DNA from: an uncultured delta proteobacterium
Lineage (GTDB): Bacteria > Myxococcota_A > Polyangia > Polyangiales > Polyangiaceae
DNA length: 64,000 bases
NCBI GenBank assembly: GCA_963716725.1
Contig: CAVQUB010000013.1
Span: forward strand, 320,001 to 384,000
Direction: 5' to 3'
Shown here: piece after piece, positions 40,890-52,732 of the stretch
Numbering within the stretch: position 1 is the first letter of the stretch
How the letters are laid out: every line of letters starts with the position of its first letter
Made by a program: the position numbers and the translations under genes
Notes under the pieces: model-generated
What the model saw: the letters and a program-made list of their open reading frames with translations, nothing else
Told to the model about the DNA's origin: nothing
The model's database searches: none

Positions 40890-41951
40890 GTGAGCCAACG
40901 CTTACGCGTGCTGGTCGTCGATGACTCCGCCTTCATGCGCGGCGCCATCAGCCGAGTGCTCTCGAGCGACTCCCGCTTCGAGGTTGCCGGGCAGGCGAAA
41001 GACGGCGAAGAGGCCGTGAAGCTGGCGGTCGAGCTCCGACCGGACGTCATCAGCATGGACTTCAACATGCCAGGGCTCAACGGCGCCGAGGCGACGCGCG
41101 CCATTCTGGCCCGGCAGCCGACCCCGATCGTGATGCTCAGCGCACACACGAGCGCCGGAGCGGCGGCCACCGTGCAAGCCCTGGCCGCCGGGGCCGTAGA
41201 TTTCGTCGAGAAGCCGGACGGAGAAGTCAGCGCCAACCTGAGCGCCATCCGGGAGTCGCTGGTCGAAAAGCTGCTCTCCGCCGCCGGGGCCAACGTGCGA
41301 GGGCCGATGACGGTGGTCGACGTCGCGTCGAGCGAACCGCCGATGTCTCGCCGAGCACCCCGCTCGTCTTCCAAACCGATGCCGGCAGGTCTGCGCGTGA
41401 TCGTGATCGCGAGCTCCACCGGCGGTCCGGCGGCGCTGGTGCGGGTACTCCCCGAGATCACGGCGCTGACGAAGGCCGCCGTAATCGTGGTCCAGCACAT
41501 GTCCGCGGGCTTCACCTTGGCGCTCGCCAATCAGCTCGCCGAGCAGTCGGGCTATCCAGTGCACGAGGCCAAGGCCGGCGACGAGCTCGCGGCCGGGAGC
41601 GCCTGGGTCGCACCCGGAGGCTTCCACCTCGTGCTCGAGCGCAACGGCACCGTTTCACTGAGCGAAGCGCCGCCGCTCCATGGTGTGCGGCCGGCGGCCG
41701 ACGTGACCTTCAAAAGCGCAGCTCAGGTCTACGGCGCACGCGCGGTGGGCGTGGTGCTCACGGGAATGGGCCGCGACGGCGCGCTGGGTCTCGCCGCGAT
41801 CAAGGCCGGTGGCGGTCGAACGGTGGCCCAAGACAAAGCCACCTGCACGGTGTATGGCATGCCGAAAGCCGCCGTGGAGATGGGTGTCGTCGATGAGGTC
41901 TTGCCATTGGACCAAATCGGACGAAGCGTGACCCGACTCGTGAGCTCGTGA
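40890..41951 (+). CDS. cheB: Chemotaxis response regulator protein-glutamate methylesterase CheB
   Basis: REC (VVDDSAFMR, MDFNMP) plus SSTGGP, VQHM, LTGMGRDG, VYGMPKAA. Confidence 0.95.
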   Translation: MSQRLRVLVVDDSAFMRGAISRVLSSDSRFEVAGQAKDGEEAVKLAVELRPDVISMDFNMPGLNGAEATRAILARQPTPIVMLSAHTSAGAAATVQALAAGAVDFVEKPDGEVSANLSAIRESLVEKLLSAAGANVRGPMTVVDVASSEPPMSRRAPRSSSKPMPAGLRVIVIASSTGGPAALVRVLPEITALTKAAVIVVQHMSAGFTLALANQLAEQSGYPVHEAKAGDELAAGSAWVAPGGFHLVLERNGTVSLSEAPPLHGVRPAADVTFKSAAQVYGARAVGVVLTGMGRDGALGLAAIKAGGGRTVAQDKATCTVYGMPKAAVEMGVVDEVLPLDQIGRSVTRLVSS

Positions 41952-43789
41952 CGACGACCGACAGAAGCGAAGAGTACCGAACGCGTGCCGCACGCTTCGG
42001 GACCGAGGCCGACCGCCTGGCGGGTCGGTCAAGGCTCGTATCCAACCTGCGCGGCCTGTCCTTTGGGTTGGCGGTCGTCTCCGGGATCGTGGCGGCGACG
42101 GGGCGAGCCGTGACCCTGAGCGGCGCGCTGGCGGCTATCGGGCTCGGCGCTTTCCTGGTGCTGCTCGTGATCCACTCCCGGGTCATCGCCGCAGAAGACA
42201 CGGCCAAGCGCTGGGCGCGCGTGAACTTCGACGGAGTCCGGCGGGTCACCGGGAAGTGGCGCGAGCTCGTGGAGAACGGCTCGAGGTTCCAGGACCCCGC
42301 CCACGCCTATTCGGGGGACATCGATCTGTTCGGCCCGGGCTCTCTCTTCCATCGCCTGTCCGTCGCGCACACCCGCTACGGTCAAGAAGCGCTCGCACGC
42401 TTTCTCACGAACCCGGAGACGCGAGACTCCATCCTCGAGCGGCAGAACGCAGTACGCGCCCTCGGCCCCGAGCTCGAGACTCGCCAAGAGCTGGAAGCGT
42501 TGGGGCTGGGAGCCACCGAGCCGGACGGCAAGGCCCGCGCCGCCCGGCCGGCACCCGATCCCGAACCGCTCCTGGCGTGGGCGGAGAGCACGCCCACGCT
42601 GGGCAAGAAGACCGCGATCGTCTGGGCCGCCCGCGTGCTGCCGCTGCTCTCGGTCGCGGGCATGGTCGGCAGCGCCTGGTTCGGGCTGCCTGCATTGGCT
42701 TGGGGGGTTCCCATCGCGCTGTCCGTGCTGCTGAACCTCACGACCCGCACTGAGACAACGCGGGTATTCGCCGCGGTGTCGAGCACGGAAGGAGCGTTCT
42801 TGCGCTATGGCGCCATGCTCGCGCTGCTCGAGAAGCTCGATCTGCCGAGCCCGCTGCTCCGGTCGATGAAGCAGCAAATCGCCGAGAGTGGGCAGTTGCC
42901 GTCGGTGGCCATGGCCGATTTTCGGCGCGCCGTCAGCTGGTACGATCTGCGTCACAACGGACTGATCCATCCCTTTGCAAACACCATCTTGCTCTGGGAC
43001 ATCCACTGCACCTTGCTGCTCGAGCGCTGGCAGGGCCGGGCCGGCAAGGCCGCTCGCGGCTGGTTTCGGGCGTTGGGTGAGATCGAGGCGCTCTCGTCCT
43101 TTGCAGGCTTTCTGTACGACGACCCCGGCGCCACGTTCCCCGAGCTCTGTGAAGAACCCGCGGTCTTCGAGGCGGAGGCTTTGGCGCACCCGCTGCTCGG
43201 TCCGGGCACACGCGTCGCCAACGACCTCTCGCTGCCCGGTCCCGGGCGCGCGCTCCTGGTGACCGGATCGAATATGAGCGGAAAGAGCACGATGCTGCGC
43301 TCCATGGGGCTCGCCGCCGTGATGACCATGGCGGGTGCTCCGGTGGTGGCGAAGCGCCTCCGCTCGAGCTTGCTCGCGGTGCGCACCAGCATGCGGATCA
43401 GCGATTCGCTCGAGCAAGGCGTCAGCCACTTCTACGCCGAAGTGCGCAAGATGAAGGTCGTGCTCGACGCGACTCAGGGAGAGCTCCCGGTGTTCTTCCT
43501 TCTCGACGAGGTGTTGCACGGCACCAACTCGCGCGAACGACAGATCGGCGCGCGCTGGCTGCTCGGAGAGCTGATCGCGCGCGGCGCGGTCGGAGCGGTG
43601 TCGACGCACGACATGGAGCTTTGTCGCCTGCCCGAAGATCTGATGAAACACGTGGAGCAGGTGCACTTCCAGGAGAACGTCGCGGGCGGAGAGATGAACT
43701 TCGACTACAAGCTTCGCCCGGGCCCCGTGACCGCGGGCAACGCCCTCAGATTGATGAAGATCGTGGGGCTCGACGTGCCCCTGGAGTAG
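41948..43789 (+). CDS. Membrane-anchored MutS domain V (ATPase) family protein
   Basis: TM segments; TGSNMSGKST Walker A, SHFYAE, LLDEVLHGTNS, STHD; no mismatch-binding domain. Confidence 0.9.
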   Translation: MTTTDRSEEYRTRAARFGTEADRLAGRSRLVSNLRGLSFGLAVVSGIVAATGRAVTLSGALAAIGLGAFLVLLVIHSRVIAAEDTAKRWARVNFDGVRRVTGKWRELVENGSRFQDPAHAYSGDIDLFGPGSLFHRLSVAHTRYGQEALARFLTNPETRDSILERQNAVRALGPELETRQELEALGLGATEPDGKARAARPAPDPEPLLAWAESTPTLGKKTAIVWAARVLPLLSVAGMVGSAWFGLPALAWGVPIALSVLLNLTTRTETTRVFAAVSSTEGAFLRYGAMLALLEKLDLPSPLLRSMKQQIAESGQLPSVAMADFRRAVSWYDLRHNGLIHPFANTILLWDIHCTLLLERWQGRAGKAARGWFRALGEIEALSSFAGFLYDDPGATFPELCEEPAVFEAEALAHPLLGPGTRVANDLSLPGPGRALLVTGSNMSGKSTMLRSMGLAAVMTMAGAPVVAKRLRSSLLAVRTSMRISDSLEQGVSHFYAEVRKMKVVLDATQGELPVFFLLDEVLHGTNSRERQIGARWLLGELIARGAVGAVSTHDMELCRLPEDLMKHVEQVHFQENVAGGEMNFDYKLRPGPVTAGNALRLMKIVGLDVPLE

Positions 43790-44451: not shown

Positions 44452-45348
44452 GTGAGCGAGTTCGACGAAAAAACCCGGGTAACTCAGGTGGTCCAGCGGC
44501 CGTCGCCGGAGGAGAGCTCCGGCAACGACTGCGTGGTCGTGATCTACACGAAGGAACCGGGGCTGCTCGGGAAGCGGTTCGTGCTCGACCGCAACGAGAT
44601 CGGCATCGGGCGCGGCGCCGACAACATGATCGTGCTCGACGGTGACTCGGTCTCGCGCCGGCACGCCCAAATCGAACGCCGCAACAGCCGCTGGTTCATC
44701 GTGGACCACGGCTCGACCAACGGGACCTACCTCAACGAGGAGCAAATCGTCCGCGAAGCTCCCCTGAACAACAGCGATCGCCTCAAGGTCGGACCGACCA
44801 TTCTCAAATTTCTGTCGGGCGCCGACGCCGAGGCCAAATACCACGAAGAGATCTACCGCATGACCATCGTCGATGGTCTGACGCAGATCCACAACAAGCG
44901 GTACCTCTACGAGGCCCTCGAACGAGAAGTACTGCGCGCCCGCCGCCATGGCCGACCGCTCAGCATCCTGATGTTCGACATCGATTTCTTCAAACGCGTC
45001 AACGATCAGTACGGACACCTCGCTGGGGACTACGTGCTGCGCGAGTTGGCGAGGGTGGTACAATCTCGGATCCGACGCGACGAGGTCTTCGCTCGCTACG
45101 GCGGGGAAGAATTCGTGATCGCGCTGCCCGAGACGCCGCTGGAGGGAGCGGCTTCGCTGGCCCAGAATCTTCGCGCGCGCGTGGCGGAGCACACCTTCAT
45201 CTTCCAAGGTGAAAGCATCCCCGTCACCGTGAGCATCGGCGCCGCGGTCCTGAGCCCGGAGGACAAGACCGCGACGGATCTGGTCCAGCGCGCCGACGAA
45301 AAGTTGTACGAAGCGAAGCGCGGCGGCCGCAATCGGGTCTGCCACTGA
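44452..45348 (+). CDS. FHA-domain diguanylate cyclase
   Basis: FHA (IGRG, SRRHA, STNGT) plus DGLT, DIDFFKRVNDQYGHLAGD, RYGGEEF. Confidence 0.95.
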   Translation: MSEFDEKTRVTQVVQRPSPEESSGNDCVVVIYTKEPGLLGKRFVLDRNEIGIGRGADNMIVLDGDSVSRRHAQIERRNSRWFIVDHGSTNGTYLNEEQIVREAPLNNSDRLKVGPTILKFLSGADAEAKYHEEIYRMTIVDGLTQIHNKRYLYEALEREVLRARRHGRPLSILMFDIDFFKRVNDQYGHLAGDYVLRELARVVQSRIRRDEVFARYGGEEFVIALPETPLEGAASLAQNLRARVAEHTFIFQGESIPVTVSIGAAVLSPEDKTATDLVQRADEKLYEAKRGGRNRVCH

Positions 45349-45375: not shown

Positions 45376-46704
45376 ATGAGCTTCAGCGAGTTCCCTCCGC
45401 CCCCCGAGCTCGATCCGGGGCAGGATCTGCCGCACCTGCGCGTGCCCCCGCCGGGCCCGGCGTCGCGATCGTGGCTGGTGCGCTACGCGCACTCGGCGGC
45501 GCCCATGGGCCCGAAGCGCATGCCGGGGCAGCGCGCTTCGACGGTGGTGTTCGCTCGAGGCCTTGGCTGCAACATGATCGATGTCGACGGCAACCGCTAC
45601 GTGGACCTGGCGGCCGGGTTCGGCGCGCTCTTGTTGGGCCACTCGCCTCCGGCTATCCGCCGCGTGCTCGAGCTGCAGGCCAATCGCCTGTGGCAAGCCC
45701 TGGGCGACGTGCACCCCGCCGATGCCCGCGTCGCGCTCACTGAGCGCCTCGCGCGGCTGCATCCGAGCGGCGACGCCCAGGTCGTGCTCGGACAGTCGGG
45801 CGCCGACGCCATCACTGCCGCGCTCAAGACCGCCGCGCTCTTCACCGGCAAGGCGGGGGTGCTCGCTTTCAGCGGCGCGTATCACGGTCTGTCCTACGGA
45901 CCGCTCGCTGCGCTGGGGCTGCGTGATAGCTATCGTGCCCCCTTCTCGGCACAGCTCAATCCGTCCGTCCGTTTCGTGCCCTACCCTCACGACGAAGCCT
46001 CGCTCGACGCATCGATCGAACGCGCTCGCTTCGAGCTGGCTCGAGGTGACGTGGGAGCGGTGATCGTCGAGCCGATCTTGGGGCGCGGCGGCTGTGTCGT
46101 GCCTCCACCTGCGTTCATGGAACAGCTCGCCACGCTGGCGCGGGGGGCGTCGGCGCTGCTGATCGCGGATGAGATTTGGACCGGACTGGGGCGATGCGGG
46201 GCGTGGCTTCGTTCGTCCCGCGATGGTGTCATCGCCGACGTGATTTGCCTGGGCAAGGGCCTGGGCGGGGGCTTGCCCATCAGCGCGTGCATCGGCCGGC
46301 GGGAGGTGATGGCGGCCTGGTCTCGCGACGATGAAGTCGTCCACACCTCCACCTTTGCGGGCGCGCCCTTGGCTTGCGCCACGGCGCTCGCCACTCTGGA
46401 CGCGCTGTCGCGTGATCACCTGCCAGAGCGCGCCGCCGCCGTCGGGGAGCGCTTCGCCCATCGCCTGGCCGAGGTCGGAGTGAAAGTGCGGGGCGCGGGG
46501 CTGATGTTGGGCATCGAACTCGGAGGTCAGCCCGGCGCCGCCGTGAAGCTCGGGAAACGCCTGCTCGCCGCGGGCTACCTCACGAGCACCGGCGGCGGCG
46601 CGCGAGAGACGCTGGTTCTGACTCCTCCGCTCGTCATCGCCGAGACGTTGCTCGACGCCTTCGCCTCGGAGCTCGCGCTCTGCGCACCGGGGCTGCTTTC
46701 GTGA
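45376..46704 (+). CDS. Class III PLP-dependent aminotransferase
   Basis: DVDGNRYVD, SGADA, AYHG, IVEPILGRGG, ADEIWTGLGR, GKGLGGG (PLP Lys), STFAG. Confidence 0.93.
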   Translation: MSFSEFPPPPELDPGQDLPHLRVPPPGPASRSWLVRYAHSAAPMGPKRMPGQRASTVVFARGLGCNMIDVDGNRYVDLAAGFGALLLGHSPPAIRRVLELQANRLWQALGDVHPADARVALTERLARLHPSGDAQVVLGQSGADAITAALKTAALFTGKAGVLAFSGAYHGLSYGPLAALGLRDSYRAPFSAQLNPSVRFVPYPHDEASLDASIERARFELARGDVGAVIVEPILGRGGCVVPPPAFMEQLATLARGASALLIADEIWTGLGRCGAWLRSSRDGVIADVICLGKGLGGGLPISACIGRREVMAAWSRDDEVVHTSTFAGAPLACATALATLDALSRDHLPERAAAVGERFAHRLAEVGVKVRGAGLMLGIELGGQPGAAVKLGKRLLAAGYLTSTGGGARETLVLTPPLVIAETLLDAFASELALCAPGLLS

Positions 46705-47798
46705 GCCTAACGGACGAGTCCGACGCGCTGCACGCGCGTGTGCGCGCCTTCGCTCGGGGTCAGAGCCACGAAGGCTTCGACGCCCTCGCCCTCGAGATCG
46801 CGCAGTTTCAACGGCGGTGGTCGGCGGGCTTTCGGCGTCTGTGCGCGGCGCACGGCGGCTTCTCGAACGTCGACGAGATCCCTGCCGTTCCCAGCGATGC
46901 CTTTCGACTGGCTCGCGTCGCCGTGCACCCGCCCCAGCTCGACGTCGCGCGCTTCATGACCAGCGGCACGAGTGGCAGCAATCGCGGCGTCCACGCGCTG
47001 CGCACTCTCGAGACCTACTCGGAGGTCGCCCGCGCCTGGGGTTCGCGAGGGCTGTGCTCGCCGAAACAGCCGACACGCGTCGTGCTCGCGTTGGCTGAAG
47101 ACCCCGGTGATCCCGGCGAGTCGTCCCTCGGCCACATGATGCGCCTGTTCATGGGCTCCTTCGATGGGCGCGCGCGCGACGCTTGGCTGATAGGAGACGG
47201 CCGGGTGCGCCTGGAGGCCTGCGACCGCGCCCTGGGCGAGGCCCGCGCTCTCGGCGAGCCGCTCTTGGTCTTGGCCCCGGCCTTCGCCCTGGTTGCGCTG
47301 CTCGAAGCCCTGAACGGCCGGGTGATCGAGGCCCCGGCAGGCACGGTGGTGATGCAGACGGGCGGCTTCAAGGGACGCACGCGTGAGCTCGATCCGAATA
47401 CGCTGCGCGCCGAGGTCGCGCGAACGTTCTGCATTCCACCCGAGCAAGTCGTGGGCGAGTACGGCATGACCGAACTCTCGAGCCAGCTCTACGAGGGCAC
47501 GCTGCCGGGAGGTGAGCTCGCGGCGGAGCCGGGCGTGTACTTGCCGCCGCCGTGGCTCCGCGTCAGCGCCGTCGATCCGCTCACCTTGACCGAGGTCCCC
47601 GCAGGCGAGACGGGCCTCGCACGCTTCGTGGATCTCGCCAACGTCGACGGCGCGGTCGCCGTGCTCACCCAAGACCTCGTGCGCCGACGTGGCGAGGGCA
47701 TCGAGCTCGTCGGTCGCAAGCCGGGCGCGCCGCCACGCGGTTGCTCACTCGCCATCGAGGCGATGCTGAGTCAGCCCGTGAGCTGCTCGGACAAGTAG
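46701..47798 (+). CDS. LuxE-like acyl-protein synthetase
   Basis: FMTSGTSG, QTGGFKG, EYGMTELSSQ, TQDL, C-terminal RGCS; GTG overlaps the aminotransferase stop. Confidence 0.88.
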   Translation: MSLTDESDALHARVRAFARGQSHEGFDALALEIAQFQRRWSAGFRRLCAAHGGFSNVDEIPAVPSDAFRLARVAVHPPQLDVARFMTSGTSGSNRGVHALRTLETYSEVARAWGSRGLCSPKQPTRVVLALAEDPGDPGESSLGHMMRLFMGSFDGRARDAWLIGDGRVRLEACDRALGEARALGEPLLVLAPAFALVALLEALNGRVIEAPAGTVVMQTGGFKGRTRELDPNTLRAEVARTFCIPPEQVVGEYGMTELSSQLYEGTLPGGELAAEPGVYLPPPWLRVSAVDPLTLTEVPAGETGLARFVDLANVDGAVAVLTQDLVRRRGEGIELVGRKPGAPPRGCSLAIEAMLSQPVSCSDK

Positions 47799-48241
47799 AG
47801 CTCTTTTCCGATCTGGCGAGCAGCGTGCAGCTGCGCTTCGAGCCAGTCGATAGACTCTTCTTCTTCTTTCAAGATGGCCGCCAGAAGCTCACGTGTTCCG
47901 TGGTCGCCTTTGGCCACGCAGAGCGCGATGCCTTTGTTCAGGCGGGCCCGCGCCTCGACCTCGACGGCGAGATCGAGCTCGTGCTGCTCGATGGGATCTT
48001 CGCCGACGCGCACCGGGTACAAGCGCTGCATATTCGGGGTGCCGTCCAAGAACAGGATGCGTTCGATCACGGTGTCGGCATGCCGCATCTCTTCGATCGA
48101 CTCCTCGCGCTTCTTCTTGGCCAGCCGCGGATAGCCCCAGTTGCCGCACATCTTGGCGTGCACGAAGTACTGGTTGATGGCGGTCAGCTCTGCGCTGAGC
48201 AGGTCGTTCAAGAGCTCGATGACTTCGGGGTCGCCTTTCAC
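47771..48241 (-). CDS. bfr: Bacterioferritin
   Basis: KGDPEVI..LN..L..ELTAINQYFVH, ESIEEMRHA..IERILFLDG.PN, IDWLE; GGAGG RBS before GTG 48241. Confidence 0.95.
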   Translation of the reverse strand: MKGDPEVIELLNDLLSAELTAINQYFVHAKMCGNWGYPRLAKKKREESIEEMRHADTVIERILFLDGTPNMQRLYPVRVGEDPIEQHELDLAVEVEARARLNKGIALCVAKGDHGTRELLAAILKEEEESIDWLEAQLHAARQIGKELYLSEQLTG

Positions 48242-48338
48242 GCATTCCTCCAGGGGCGGAGCGTAGTGTCCCCGACCTCCAATGCGTACCGCCAATCCGA
48301 CGGGGCAAAATCACCTGGAAAATGGGGCCTGTCATTTT

Positions 48339-48357
48339 GATATTGAAAGTCATTTTC
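48339..48357. promoter_or_regulatory. Fur-box-like operator between divergent bfr and bfd
   Basis: GATATTGAAAGTCATTTTC matches 15/19 of GATAATGATAATCATTATC, in an AT-rich patch 30 bp before bfd. Confidence 0.75.
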
Positions 48358-48386
48358 ATCTGGCTAGACTGAGCCTCGGAGGTCAC

Positions 48387-48596
48387 GTGCTGGTCTGTCA
48401 CTGCCACAAGGTCTGCCACCGAAGAGTCCTGGAAGCCTGCGACGCCGGCGCGGAGAGCGTGGAAGAGGTCGGCCGCGCCTGCGGGGCCGGCACCAGTTGC
48501 GGCGGCTGTCGCCCTCTGGTCGAGGATCTAATCCGCGTGCATCGCCGCGCGGCCGCCAGCTCCGGCGAACCCCAGAGCCACGCTCCGGCCGCCTGA
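48387..48596 (+). CDS. bfd: Bacterioferritin-associated [2Fe-2S] ferredoxin
   Basis: VCHC...GAGTSCGGC; GGAGG RBS; next to bfr. Confidence 0.9.
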   Translation: MLVCHCHKVCHRRVLEACDAGAESVEEVGRACGAGTSCGGCRPLVEDLIRVHRRAAASSGEPQSHAPAA

Positions 48597-48733
48597 TCAC
48601 GCGCCTGGGAGCTGCAAGCGCGGACAGCCCGCTCTCGGCGCTGCGCTCCCGGCTCGAAGGCGCGAGGTTGATCACGCAAGCTGGCACTGATGGTCGGCGC
48701 CACGTCATACTGCCCCGGCTCCCCGCCCGGCTC

Positions 48734-49789
48734 ATGTCCTCGCAAGCCCGCCTCAGCGCACTGATCAACGCCGCGAGGCGGCTCAGCGATCCCCGGGACC
48801 CGTTGGGTCACGCGGCCCGCGCCCAGCTGCCCTCGAGCACTGGGCTGTCGCCGGAGAACGTCGAACTCGCCCTGCGCGAGGTGCTGGAGACCGAGCCCAC
48901 CGAGAGCGAGATCCGCGCGCTGATCGCCTCGGCTCCACCGGCGCCCCGCGTGCACGTCCAGCTCGCGCCGAACGTGTTCACCGCTCCGCTCCGGGCCATC
49001 GCGCTGGCGCTGGCCCAATCGCCCAGCGTGTTCGTCCGTGCGTCGCGACGTGAGCCCGTGTTCGCTCGATTGCTCCAGCAAGCCTCCGCGGCCTTCGAGC
49101 TCGTCGAGTCGCTGGCGCCGGCGCCCGGCGATCACCTCTGGGCCTACGGCTCAGACGACACGCTGTCGAGCCTCCTTCGGCAGCTGCCGGCCGGCGTCGT
49201 TCTGCACGCTCACGGCCCGGGGTTCGGCATCGCGTTGATCGCCGCAGGCGCTTCCGGCGCGGCGAGTGCCTTGGCGAGCGACCTGGTTCCCTTCGACCAG
49301 CGCGGCTGCTTGAGCCCTCGCGTGGCGGTGGTCGTGGGTACGGCGGACGACGCGCGCAGCTTCGCACGAGAGGTCGCGCTGGAGCTGGATCGCGCCGCGT
49401 CGCGGGTGCCGCTCGGCCGCATCGATGACGATGAACGCGCGGCGTGTGCCCTGCTGCGCGAGACCATGAGCTACGCCGGTGAGGTCTTCGGTTGCGGCTC
49501 GGGCTGGGTCGCCGTGGACGAGGTCCCCCAGCGCTTGGTGCCCACGCCGGGCGCGCGGTCCTTGGTGGTGACACGCTCGGAATCGTCGCTCGACTGGCTT
49601 CAAGCCTTCGACGCCGTCATCACTTGCGTGGGGATCGCGGGGCCCGAGTCCCTCGTGCACGCGGCGGCGCAGGCGCTGCCCGGCGCACGACTGTGTCCGC
49701 TCGGCGGCATGCAGCGCCCGGCCTTCGACGGTCCGGTGGATCGGCGGCCCGGGTCGCGACCGCGACGCACCGGGGGGGATTCGAGCTAG
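48734..49789 (+). CDS. LuxC-like acyl-CoA reductase
   Basis: STGLSPENV, AYGSDDTL, HGPGFG, FDQRGCLSP (catalytic Cys), GGMQRP..DG. Confidence 0.82.
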   Translation: MSSQARLSALINAARRLSDPRDPLGHAARAQLPSSTGLSPENVELALREVLETEPTESEIRALIASAPPAPRVHVQLAPNVFTAPLRAIALALAQSPSVFVRASRREPVFARLLQQASAAFELVESLAPAPGDHLWAYGSDDTLSSLLRQLPAGVVLHAHGPGFGIALIAAGASGAASALASDLVPFDQRGCLSPRVAVVVGTADDARSFAREVALELDRAASRVPLGRIDDDERAACALLRETMSYAGEVFGCGSGWVAVDEVPQRLVPTPGARSLVVTRSESSLDWLQAFDAVITCVGIAGPESLVHAAAQALPGARLCPLGGMQRPAFDGPVDRRPGSRPRRTGGDSS

Positions 49790-49805
49790 ACTCCGCCCGG
49801 TGTCG

Positions 49806-51074
49806 ATGACGAAGCGGGGCGGATTGCTCCTGGGGCTCCTCGGCCTCGGCGCGTGCGGCAACCCGCTGATGGGCGGCAGCGGCGGCGCGCTCCGGGCCAA
49901 AGCACCCGAAACAGAGACGGGGCAGTCGAAGTGCAAGGTCGCCGCCAGCGCGGAGAACCCGCTGGTGACCGAGTGGCCGGCGTCCGAGAAGGCCAACCTC
50001 GAGGCGCGATTGCGCGAGGGAGGCGTGGTCGTCAGCTATTCGGGCTGCGAGATGAAACTGTTGCCGCAGTGCCGCGTGCGCGGCGCCTACGGCTGGCGCC
50101 GCACCACGACGACCACCGATGTGGTGGAGATCCACGACGCCGATGAGCTCTACGCGAAGCTGCCCCTCGGTGCAGTCTCCCTCGAGGGCCAGCTCGAGCG
50201 GAGCGGTCGCCTCGCGGTGCAAACCACGATCGCCGGGCAGCTGGAGCTGCAGGGCTGGGACAAACAGGTCTCCGAGGACGCGACCTGCGCGGGCGCCAGC
50301 CACCTGGTCGGCGCGCTGTCCATCGGCGCCTTCAAGCTGCGGGCTGGTGGCAGCCTGAAGGCCAAGGGCGGAGTGGGCGTGGTCGGCGTAGGCTCGACGG
50401 GCGCCGCGACTCAGAGTTCGGAGTCCGTACTGCGGGAGGCCGGGTCGCCGGACGCCTGCAAAGAGTCGACGGACGCGGCTGCGCACAATGAGTGCCGATC
50501 GCCGATTCAGGTCTTCCTCTGGCCGCTGCCCAAGGAGCTGGCCGACCGCGGCCCCGCAGGCGCCGTCAAGGTCAACTTCCTCTCGGCAAACTCCGAGCAC
50601 CAGTACGACGTCGCAGTGAGCGACCGGAAGCTGTGCACCACCCCCTGCTCGCGTTGGGTGGATCCGGCCGTTCCATTCAGCTTCGTGCACGAAGCGGCCT
50701 GGTACGAGCGCAACGAGCGCATTGAAGTGCCAGATCTGCGCGAGCACCAGGCGAAGGGCAACAAGGTCGACGCTCGCGCCTACCCCACCAAGACCGGCAA
50801 GCTGGCCGGCGGCATCGTCATGACGACCTTCGGCGGCATCGGTGTGCTCACCGGCGCAGCGCTGACGGCTGTCGGCGCCGCCAAAGACCAGAGCTCCACG
50901 CTCACCGCGGGCCTGATCACGCTGCCGGTGGGCATCGGGCTCACGGTGCCTGGGATTTTGCTGATCGTGAACAGCGGGTCTCGAGTCGAGATTGATCCGG
51001 CCAACCCGAATGCACCCGCGCCGATGCCCACCGCGGCGCGACGCCTCGAGCTCGGAGTGGGCGGACGGTTCTGA
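49806..51074 (+). CDS. Hypothetical lipoprotein with C-terminal hydrophobic hairpin
   Basis: Lipobox LGAC; several Cys; two C-terminal Gly-rich hydrophobic segments. Confidence 0.7.
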   Translation: MTKRGGLLLGLLGLGACGNPLMGGSGGALRAKAPETETGQSKCKVAASAENPLVTEWPASEKANLEARLREGGVVVSYSGCEMKLLPQCRVRGAYGWRRTTTTTDVVEIHDADELYAKLPLGAVSLEGQLERSGRLAVQTTIAGQLELQGWDKQVSEDATCAGASHLVGALSIGAFKLRAGGSLKAKGGVGVVGVGSTGAATQSSESVLREAGSPDACKESTDAAAHNECRSPIQVFLWPLPKELADRGPAGAVKVNFLSANSEHQYDVAVSDRKLCTTPCSRWVDPAVPFSFVHEAAWYERNERIEVPDLREHQAKGNKVDARAYPTKTGKLAGGIVMTTFGGIGVLTGAALTAVGAAKDQSSTLTAGLITLPVGIGLTVPGILLIVNSGSRVEIDPANPNAPAPMPTAARRLELGVGGRF

Positions 51075-51078
51075 GGGC

Positions 51079-52653
51079 TCACACGCCGTCGGCGGCGAGG
51101 GAGTCGAGCACGTTCTCCCGCGGACGCACGTGGAAGAGCAGACTGCGGAGCGGAGCCTCCGCCATGATTCCCTCCCAGGTTCGACGCCGCGGCCGCTTCA
51201 TCTGATCGGCGAGCGCGTCGGGAAAGCCCGTCAAGGGATCGATGTCCTCGATCAGGATCGCGTGCTGATGGATCAAGCCATCGGCCTTCTTGCCCTGAAT
51301 GGCCACCACGTCACCGGGAAGGAAGAGATCGGCGGCGGCGACGAGCGAGCGAAAGAAACGCGATCGTTCCCCAAAGGCGACGCGCTCCTCGGGCTCGAGG
51401 CGCCGATGCTCGAAGAGCTCGGGATGCTCCGAGGCGAACTTCTCGAAGGCGAGCACGGATCGTCGGTTCACGATCCCCAGCTGGTCGAAGTCCAAGCCTC
51501 CCACCTTGCGCCCGAGCTCTGCGCCCCGAGCCGAGAACCAGGTCCCGGAGGCGCGCTCGAAGCTGTCGAGCACGAAGTCCACGCACATCTGTGGCGGCAG
51601 GGGTCGCCCGCGGCTGTCGAAGACCGGATAGCTCTGTTCCTCGTGGCTGAAATAGGGCTGTCCGCGCTGATACGCCCAGCGCCACGCCGGCCGCAGCTGC
51701 CCGTCGCGCTCGGCGGTCTTTTCGTCTTTGGGTCGGTCGAAGGGCACGGCTTCCGCCACTTGTTCGTCGATGGCCGTCCGCAAACGAGCCAGGGCGGCCC
51801 GCCGTCGCGTGCCCGCGCTTCGAATGCGAGCGATCTGCTCGCGCTCGCTCTTTGGAGCGTCGTGACAGGCGATCGACAGCGCCGCTCCCTTGGACTCGAG
51901 CAGGGTCTTCACCCACACCTCTCCGAAGCGGAGCTCGGCCAAGAGGGCCTTCGAGGTGCGCCGGGAGATGCGCGCTCGCAAAAAACCCGCCTCGCGCCCC
52001 AACGCCCGGAGGTCCCGGTGAAGCGGCTCACCCAACTCGGTCTTCCGTACCGCCACGCGATCCCCGAGCAGCAGTTCGCCCGGGCGTCCGTCGGCGGACC
52101 GATAGCTGGCGAAGCGCCCCGCGCTGCGCCGCAGCTCGAAGGTAGTAGCGCCGCGCTGAACTACGATCTCGGGTTCGTCGAAGAGGGCCGTCAGCTCGAT
52201 CATCGTCACCAGGGCGAGGGCCTCGTGCGGATGCCTCGAGTAGAGGTAGCCCTCGCGCAGCAAGAGCGCCCGCAAGGTGGCTCGGTCACCGCGGTGGCGC
52301 GTGAGCGCGTTCTTCACGCTGGACGGCCCCGGCTTCTTCGCCAGCGCCTCAGCCGTGCTTCGCGCGCCGGCCGGGAGCGCGCGCGCGTCGCTGCGCTCGG
52401 GCTCACGGAGCCAGATCAACGGCTCGCCGCGAGCGCGACCCAGGATCTCGATGCGAGCCTCGTCGATCGCCGGAGCTCCCGGGAGCTCCGCTTCGGTCGC
52501 GAGAGAAGCGAGCCGGCTGCGACAGGCGTCGAGTTCGACGTCCCGCGGCGCTTCGGCCGGCGCCGGCGCCGCGCTGGGAATCGGCGAGGGAGCTGCGGAG
52601 GTCCGCCCGCAACCAGCGAGCATGAACCAGACTAGGACGACGCCGGCGCGCAT
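51079..52653 (-). CDS. Lipoprotein with putative C-terminal NlpC/P60-like (Cys-His) domain
   Basis: Lipobox LAGC; QMCVDFV...PGDVVAI...HQHAILI. Confidence 0.6.
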   Translation of the reverse strand: MRAGVVLVWFMLAGCGRTSAAPSPIPSAAPAPAEAPRDVELDACRSRLASLATEAELPGAPAIDEARIEILGRARGEPLIWLREPERSDARALPAGARSTAEALAKKPGPSSVKNALTRHRGDRATLRALLLREGYLYSRHPHEALALVTMIELTALFDEPEIVVQRGATTFELRRSAGRFASYRSADGRPGELLLGDRVAVRKTELGEPLHRDLRALGREAGFLRARISRRTSKALLAELRFGEVWVKTLLESKGAALSIACHDAPKSEREQIARIRSAGTRRRAALARLRTAIDEQVAEAVPFDRPKDEKTAERDGQLRPAWRWAYQRGQPYFSHEEQSYPVFDSRGRPLPPQMCVDFVLDSFERASGTWFSARGAELGRKVGGLDFDQLGIVNRRSVLAFEKFASEHPELFEHRRLEPEERVAFGERSRFFRSLVAAADLFLPGDVVAIQGKKADGLIHQHAILIEDIDPLTGFPDALADQMKRPRRRTWEGIMAEAPLRSLLFHVRPRENVLDSLAADGV

Positions 52654-52732
52654 CTTCGCCCATGCTAACGCCAGAACGGACCCGCGCATTCACTTTGCCG
52701 CAGGATCCGAGTAGGTTTCGGCGCTGGCGCTC

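Follow-up and report, generated by a model that had tools for sequence, protein, structure and literature searches.

In a 64,000-nucleotide (nt) stretch of DNA from an uncultured delta proteobacterium of the family Polyangiaceae (hereafter the window; contig CAVQUB010000013.1, positions 320,001 to 384,000), three genes encode a class III aminotransferase, a LuxE-like acyl-protein synthetase and a LuxC-like thioester reductase. These three proteins probably form a module that turns 7-carboxy-7-deazaguanine (CDG) into 7-aminomethyl-7-deazaguanine (preQ1), replacing QueC and QueF. CDG is the product of QueE, and preQ1 is the substrate of Tgt on the way to the tRNA base queuosine. To our knowledge, queuosine synthesis counts as completely elucidated, and no enzymes other than QueC and QueF are taken to lead from CDG to preQ1. 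The genomes that carry the three genes (the trio) make CDG and use preQ1, and the one step left unexplained in them is that from CDG to preQ1, i.e. from a carboxylate to an aminomethyl group; since they lack QueC and QueF, we propose the trio for this gap. It is likewise likely that most Myxococcota make preQ1 via this module, in a nitrile-free manner and with 7-formyl-7-deazaguanine as the intermediate, as would lineages of Gemmatimonadota, Verrucomicrobiota, Acidobacteriota, Eremiobacterota, Sumerlaeota, Omnitrophota and Chloroflexota. In that case, the module would represent an as yet undescribed, non-orthologous substitute for QueC and QueF.

In the route that we infer, for which substrate, aldehyde intermediate, amino donor and cofactor are all predicted, the LuxE-like protein would activate the 7-carboxylate of CDG with ATP to form CDG-AMP, and load it onto its own C-terminal cysteine as a thioester (CDG-S-Cys). 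Subsequently, the acyl group would be passed from this cysteine to the cysteine of the LuxC-like protein and reduced with NAD(P)H, resulting in 7-formyl-7-deazaguanine. The aminotransferase would then convert this aldehyde into preQ1 at the expense of an amino donor. A first-pass annotation of the window had proposed an acid-to-aldehyde-to-amine pathway that operates independently of luciferase, and the present analysis upholds this logic. Among the products suggested there, the aryl primary amine comes closest, preQ1 being a heteroaryl aminomethyl compound; the conversion of CDG to preQ1 is what the reading given here points to.

Distribution of the trio against QueC and QueF

Searches in 301 genomes of the phylum covered the LuxE-like protein (242 positive), QueC (52 over the cut-off) and the QueF domain, for which matches of 106 bits or more were taken as true or strong QueF. 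LuxE-like proteins occur without QueC in 238 genomes and QueC without LuxE in 48, while 4 genomes have both and 11 have neither. Strong QueF is found in none of the LuxE-positive genomes and in 43 LuxE-negative ones, with 16 genomes having neither, and the 4 genomes that combine LuxE and QueC are all without strong QueF. The LuxE-like gene is mostly present as a single copy, including in genomes of 1.8 to 3 Mb.

This complementarity can be followed down to single families. In family f1, LuxE is found in 22 of 23 genomes and QueC in none, while family f19 has LuxE in 0/5 and QueC in 5/5. Within family f41, nine of ten genomes are LuxE-positive and the tenth (G172) carries adjacent QueC and QueF genes; a similar switch is seen in family f17, where G040 is LuxE-positive and G317 has an adjacent QueC-QueF pair. 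Outside the phylum, a 101-genome sample of a second phylum (that of the Rubritalea tangerina record) contains the LuxE-like protein in 4 genomes, none of which has QueC or QueF (0/4 each), against 79/101 and 82/101 genomes overall; the corresponding Fisher p values of 0.0018 (QueC) and 0.00095 (QueF) ignore kinship and serve as a guide only. Among 20 LuxE-positive genomes of other phyla, neither QueC nor QueF-II is found over its cut-off (0/20 each) and Tgt is present in 19.

The weakest matches to the QueF domain are probably cross-matches of FolE: low PF14489 matches lie at 28 to 32 bits, and one that was examined (in G262) is a FolE protein. As a separate observation, one of the genomes with both LuxE and QueC carries two QueC copies 2 kb apart (G226:C41:84778-87906) and has the trio but no strong QueF; this QueC pair may serve another deazapurine use.

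The LuxE-like and LuxC-like proteins

The LuxE-like protein (365 amino acids; 46701..47798, plus strand) matches the Pfam family LuxE (PF04443) at 37.3 bits, over a cut-off of 24.9. Its residues 31-353 align nearly end to end with LuxE of Photobacterium phosphoreum (7xc6_E; E 3e-9), and the C-terminal RGCSL falls on KGCSL of 7xc6_E, in the column of the acyl-accepting Cys364. The TSGT loop and terminal RGCS picked out in the first-pass annotation are borne out by alignments of 18 to 39 orthologues, in which TSGT, YGMTE and RGCS are invariant or nearly so, and TGGxKG and GR are invariant as well. In particular, R346, G347, C348 and S349 show no variation in 18 orthologues. The subfamily is further set apart from P. 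phosphoreum LuxE by numerous invariant polar residues that are missing in the latter.

The LuxC-like protein (351 amino acids; 48734..49789, plus strand) matches the Pfam family LuxC (PF05893) at 59.5 bits, over a cut-off of 21. Its alignment with P. phosphoreum LuxC (7xc6_A) is restricted to the surroundings of the catalytic cysteine, where FDQRGCLS falls on YDQQACFS. The fold, of the aldehyde dehydrogenase (ALDH) type, is recovered more fully: the structure model (predicted local distance difference test, pLDDT, 94.5) has 7xc6_A as its best match in the PDB (E 2.2e-15, TMq 0.76), and further aldehyde dehydrogenases rank behind it. In the DQRGCLSP motif, G191, C192, S194 and P195 are invariant across 20 orthologues.

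Both proteins stay far below the cut-offs of the NCBIfam equivalog models of the lux operon: the LuxE model (NF052244) gives 32.7 bits where 550 are required, and the LuxC model (NF052251) gives 22.7 bits where 750 are required. Going by their sequences, they are genuine though remote relatives within their families, which presumably act in the manner of LuxE and LuxC, and not lux-operon enzymes themselves. In line with the first-pass annotation, no luxA, luxB or luxD gene is present in the window: neither the Bac_luciferase nor the LuxD family was found among its 52 candidate open reading frames (ORFs; at least 110 amino acids, with a GC content at third codon positions of at least 0.8).

An aminotransferase without carboxylate-binding arginines

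The aminotransferase (45376..46704, plus strand; Pfam Aminotran_3, 274.5 bits) is of the class III (omega) type and belongs to a distinct orthogroup. It scores under every NCBIfam equivalog cut-off, and its nearest relatives in sequence are of the GabT, PatA and ArgD types. The lysine that binds pyridoxal 5'-phosphate (PLP), K294, is present in 33 of 33 orthologues. Three other active-site positions have been rewired. Where the solved GabT and PatA structures have HGR or HGK, the orthologues have HGL (L in 31/33), and GEGG is replaced by GRGG (R in 33/33). In the C-terminal arginine column of GabT and PatA, arginine is found in 0/33 orthologues, with V, I, T, S or G in its place (V in the window). 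The hydrophobic residues L172 and V414 thereby occupy the positions of both GabT-type arginines. The replaced columns correspond to R141, E211 and R398 of Escherichia coli GabT, which hold the carboxylates of the substrate and of 2-oxoglutarate.

With both carboxylate-binding arginines lost, the enzyme is not of the GabT, ArgD or PatA type as judged from these residues, and the ordinary GabT or ArgD that the first-pass annotation had raised as a counter-reading can be set aside. Because the residues that would hold a carboxylate are gone, the aldehyde substrate probably bears none. The same signature is kept where the gene has moved away from its partners. Five genomes without an adjacent aminotransferase all have one unlinked aminotransferase with the signature HG[L/Q], GR[G/A]G and no arginine, at 39 to 42% identity, while the paralogues in those five genomes show HGR, GEGG and the arginine.

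Linkage of the three genes

The overlap of the aminotransferase and LuxE-like genes that the first-pass annotation had noted spans 4 nt, with the TGA stop of the former (46702-46704) and the GTG start of the latter (46701-46703) being read as GTGA. Across the order, the LuxE-like and LuxC-like proteins are found together in 41 of 41 genomes (17 families), with adjacent genes in 34 and with genes on different contigs in 4 further genomes; because the pair is complete in every genome of the order, a chance association is excluded. In one genome (G015), the two proteins are fused in a single frame of 743 amino acids (L016:1495-3723), which is the sole real fusion among the candidates. Apparent aminotransferase-LuxE fusions in long open frames were rejected, as they are out-of-frame open stretches of high-GC DNA.

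Conservation of the aminotransferase with the pair, whose absence the first-pass annotation would have counted against its reading, is seen in close relatives, across the phylum and in other phyla. It lies directly upstream of the LuxE-like gene in 18 of 19 loci of close relatives and in 15 of 20 loci taken phylum-wide; in one of the others it is a divergent neighbour, and in four it is missing within 7 kb. Locus L047 (Minicystis rosea DSM 24000, record CP016211.1) shares the gene order of the window. Elsewhere both gene orders occur: among the best 80 loci of the species-genome collection, 40 contain the aminotransferase, 34 of them upstream and 6, in other phyla, downstream of LuxC. These loci extend to Gemmatimonadota, Verrucomicrobiota, Acidobacteriota, Eremiobacterota, Sumerlaeota, Omnitrophota and Dehalococcoidia. 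Besides the trio itself, no neighbour is conserved phylum-wide, and the neighbours in other phyla look lineage-specific (an ABC-2 transporter, a flavin oxidoreductase, GCV_T, an amidohydrolase, HPPK, and a Cys/Met PLP enzyme with a CoA-binding protein).

The rest of the queuosine pathway

The genome of the window retains the steps on either side of the proposed one. QueA and Tgt are encoded by adjacent genes on contig C2, QueD is found at 104.7 bits (cut-off 89.25), and for one radical-SAM (S-adenosylmethionine) protein, the five top-scoring NCBIfam models are all QueE. The identity of the latter as QueE is supported because its homologues adjoin QueC in at least 11 QueC-positive genomes of the phylum. 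With a single query, QueE-like genes were found in 206 of 242 LuxE-positive and 41 of 59 LuxE-negative genomes. QueC and QueF were not found in the genome of the window by family search or tblastn.

All five trio genomes examined have Tgt, QueA and PTPS. Two genomes that are close to complete, G031 (100%) and G053 (99%), are without QueC, QueF and the salvage transporter YhhQ, and keep QueD, the QueE-like protein, Tgt and QueA. A physical link of the LuxE-LuxC pair to a queuosine gene is found in Gemmatimonadota, where locus L065 holds a queE-luxE-luxC operon (L065:4576-7665) with a 1-nt gap followed by a 4-nt overlap. The queE gene product scores 299.2 bits on TIGR04349, and the flanks are without the aminotransferase. 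In metagenome relatives of this operon, with LuxE identities of 63 to 91%, queE is directly upstream in all five that have upstream DNA (L147, L148, L150, L151 and L152).

Observations that weigh against the proposed role

A number of findings speak against a role of the trio in preQ1 synthesis. For the genome of the window itself, the QueE protein falls under the subtype cut-offs, the assembly is only 84% complete, and the LuxC-like gene is parted from the LuxE-like gene by two others (bfr and bfd). A salvage transporter of the YhhQ type is present in two of the five trio genomes examined; precursor salvage thus contributes in some trio genomes. LuxE and QueC co-occur in the 4 genomes mentioned above, and because related genomes are not independent of each other, the Fisher values overstate the case. 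Moreover, 13 LuxE-positive genomes have a divergent protein of the QueF family. Two of these proteins were examined, both of 219 amino acids and from trio genomes without QueC (L132:3516-4175 in G305 and L133:3115-3774 in G186); they reach 82.1 and 72.8 bits on TIGR03139, under the cut-off of 86.9, and their gene neighbours (proC, glnS and others) are uninformative on their role.

Genomic linkage to queuosine genes is also sparse. In a tblastn search of 119 trio loci, for which QueA, Tgt, QueD, two subtypes of QueE and FolE served as queries, queuosine genes appeared in the flanks of only three: QueE in L065, QueD in L047 at 3.6 kb and FolE in L026 at 4.4 kb. Except for L065, linkage at this level is roughly that expected by chance. 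Of the 60 loci L061-L120, 37 were scanned with Rfam, which returned no riboswitch and a single tRNA.

Alternative substrates and products

Other readings of the trio differ from the proposed one in the acid that enters the pathway or in the fate of its product. The alternative that survives best, which we nevertheless hold to be unlikely, is that a long-chain fatty or aryl acid is converted via its aldehyde into an amine, destined for a lipid or secondary metabolite. The homology to the LuxC-LuxE fatty acid reductase would fit such a substrate, as would the hydrophobic L172 and V414 in place of the two aminotransferase arginines, and there is a precedent in the LuxC-like reductase TabE and the omega-transaminase TabA, which make dodecylamine (10.1101/2025.08.11.669332). 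A single-copy set found in 242 of 301 genomes is, however, unlike a secondary-metabolite cluster, and genes for acyl carrier proteins, thioesterases or lipids are not among the conserved neighbors of the trio. The many invariant polar residues of the LuxE-like subfamily are foreign to P. phosphoreum LuxE, and both the complementarity with QueC and QueF and the queE-luxE-luxC operon would be left unexplained. A fatty acid substrate is improbable because the LuxE-like protein is distributed in a manner complementary to QueC and QueF. The long-chain amine or aminolipid precursor suggested in the first-pass annotation is a misfit for a near-universal, single-copy set with this distribution, and the reverse direction, amine catabolism, founders on the same pattern.

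More doubtful still is a different small polar carboxylate as the substrate (glutamate, aspartate, gamma-aminobutyrate, beta-alanine or a malonate-type semialdehyde), with shared ancestry accounting for the anticorrelation with QueC and QueF. The aminotransferase is indeed nearest in sequence to semialdehyde-converting enzymes of the GabT, PatA and ArgD types, and the logic of activation, reduction and transamination is that of ArgB, ArgC and ArgD. Against this, the usual genes are present, which leaves no vacant step for the trio; the aminotransferase is devoid of the arginines needed to bind substrates of this kind; and the complementarity recurs inside families as well as in a second phylum. 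The least probable of the three alternatives is that a 7-deazaguanine carboxylate is turned into a product other than the tRNA precursor (a deazapurine metabolite or a DNA modification) with queuosine coming from salvage: a YhhQ-family transporter in two of five trio genomes and the presence of LuxE together with QueC in 4 genomes, by which deazapurine genes can serve other ends, are consistent with it, but G031 and G053 retain the other pathway genes without transporter, QueC or QueF, and modification genes, DpdA-like or other, are not conserved next to the trio.

Three specific metabolic replacements were considered separately and rejected. For a substitute of ArgB/ArgC/ArgD or ProB/ProA, ArgC is present in five of five trio genomes and ProA in four of five (with no match in the 84% complete genome of the window). 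For a new beta-alanine route, PanD is present in four of five trio and four of five non-trio genomes, and for a tRNA-independent route to 5-aminolevulinate, HemA is present in five of five.

Comparison with known systems

The conversion of CDG to preQ1 that we propose for the trio can be set beside three known systems. The LuxC-LuxE complex of P. phosphoreum (PDB 7XC6) shares both protein families, the fold, the C-terminal cysteine of LuxE and the catalytic cysteine of LuxC. It turns an acid into an acyl-AMP, transfers the acyl group to the LuxE cysteine and then to the LuxC cysteine, and releases the aldehyde (PMC12041015). The proteins of the window differ from it in their low identity (about 17 to 20%), in scores far under the equivalog cut-offs, and in the size of the LuxC-like protein (351 versus 477 amino acids). 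Unlike in lux systems, there is no luxA, luxB or luxD in the window, a special aminotransferase is coupled to the pair, and a deazapurine carboxylate is predicted as the substrate instead of myristate.

QueC and QueF share the predicted start and end compounds of the trio, and thereby its place in the pathway. Across genomes the two sets are near-exclusive, and their proteins are unrelated. They would also differ in chemistry: QueC and QueF proceed via an amide and the nitrile preQ0, followed by a four-electron reduction, whereas the trio is proposed to use a thioester, an aldehyde and a transamination. The predicted intermediate, 7-formyl-7-deazaguanine, has so far been described solely as a by-product that QueF mutants form by hydrolysis (PMC13740343).

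Closest in overall logic are TabE/TabA of Streptomyces and the TamH and PigE fusions, in which an activated acid is converted via an aldehyde to a primary amine. TabE falls in a cluster that contains LuxC (10.1101/2025.08.11.669332). These systems depend on acyl carrier proteins, take fatty chains as substrates and belong to secondary-metabolite clusters, in contrast to the trio, which is carrier-free and resembles a housekeeping set; the PigE model gives the aminotransferase 239.6 bits, well under its cut-off of 850. The kinds of enzyme and the acid-aldehyde-amine logic are thus known from TabE/TabA, while the proposed role and the rewired aminotransferase are new. A literature search, in a coverage that mostly excludes subscription journals, found no paper that connects preQ1 with a transaminase or with enzymes of the LuxE/LuxC type.

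Genomes with QueD, QueE, Tgt and QueA and without QueC and QueF are normally taken for salvagers or incomplete assemblies. If the proposed role holds true, pathway reconstruction would change for whole phyla, and a large family annotated as 'acyl-protein synthetase / acyl-CoA reductase' would acquire a defined function. In addition, the module would represent a carrier-free cascade from a heteroaryl acid to an amine, driven by ATP and NADPH, which would be of interest for biocatalysis beside the QueF nitrile reductases.

Neighboring genes in the window

The window has a high GC content (about 68%). Between the LuxE-like and LuxC-like genes lie a bacterioferritin gene (bfr; 47771..48241, minus strand; TIGR00754, 188.6 bits) and a gene for a Bfd-like [2Fe-2S] protein (bfd; 48387..48596, plus strand; Pfam Fer2_BFD, 45.9 bits). 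The first-pass annotation had placed the LuxC-like gene on the same strand after this pair. Its account needs correction in that only bfd shares this strand, whereas bfr is convergent with the LuxE-like gene and overlaps its 3' end by 28 nt. The bfr/bfd pair is found at this place in part of the source genus only (the genome of the window, G005 and G002), and 34 of 41 relatives have no bfr between LuxE and LuxC. Since a split of LuxE and LuxC on one contig is limited to this genus, the pair is a recent insertion into an old operon, and bfr is not a member of the pathway. The start of the LuxC-like gene is likely the ATG at 48734 instead of 48497, because the longer frame passes through bfd. 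The spacer between bfr and bfd (48296-48386) is AT-rich and holds the sole sigma-70-like match of the region (48343-48370); judging by this promoter-like site, the LuxC-like gene may now be cotranscribed with bfd.

Upstream of the trio, a gene for an FHA-GGDEF diguanylate cyclase (44452..45348, plus strand; Pfam GGDEF 163.8 bits, FHA 72.5 bits) ends 27 nt before the start of the aminotransferase gene. It keeps this position in most Polyangiaceae loci and is not upstream of the aminotransferase in loci of other families, so it is probably a conserved neighbor within the family only and stands outside the aminotransferase-LuxE-LuxC pathway.

Directly 3' of the LuxC-like gene, an ORF of 424 amino acids (49800-51074) encodes a lipoprotein-like protein with no Pfam or NCBIfam match. 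It is followed by a convergent ORF of 536 amino acids (51079-52689), also with no match to Pfam or NCBIfam, which among the related loci recurs as a fragment in L007 of the same genus only. Further upstream, a MutS-like protein of 613 amino acids (41948-43789) matches MutS domains V and III only and scores far under the MutS1 and MutS2 cut-offs; its ORF overlaps the stop of a CheB gene (40890-41951).

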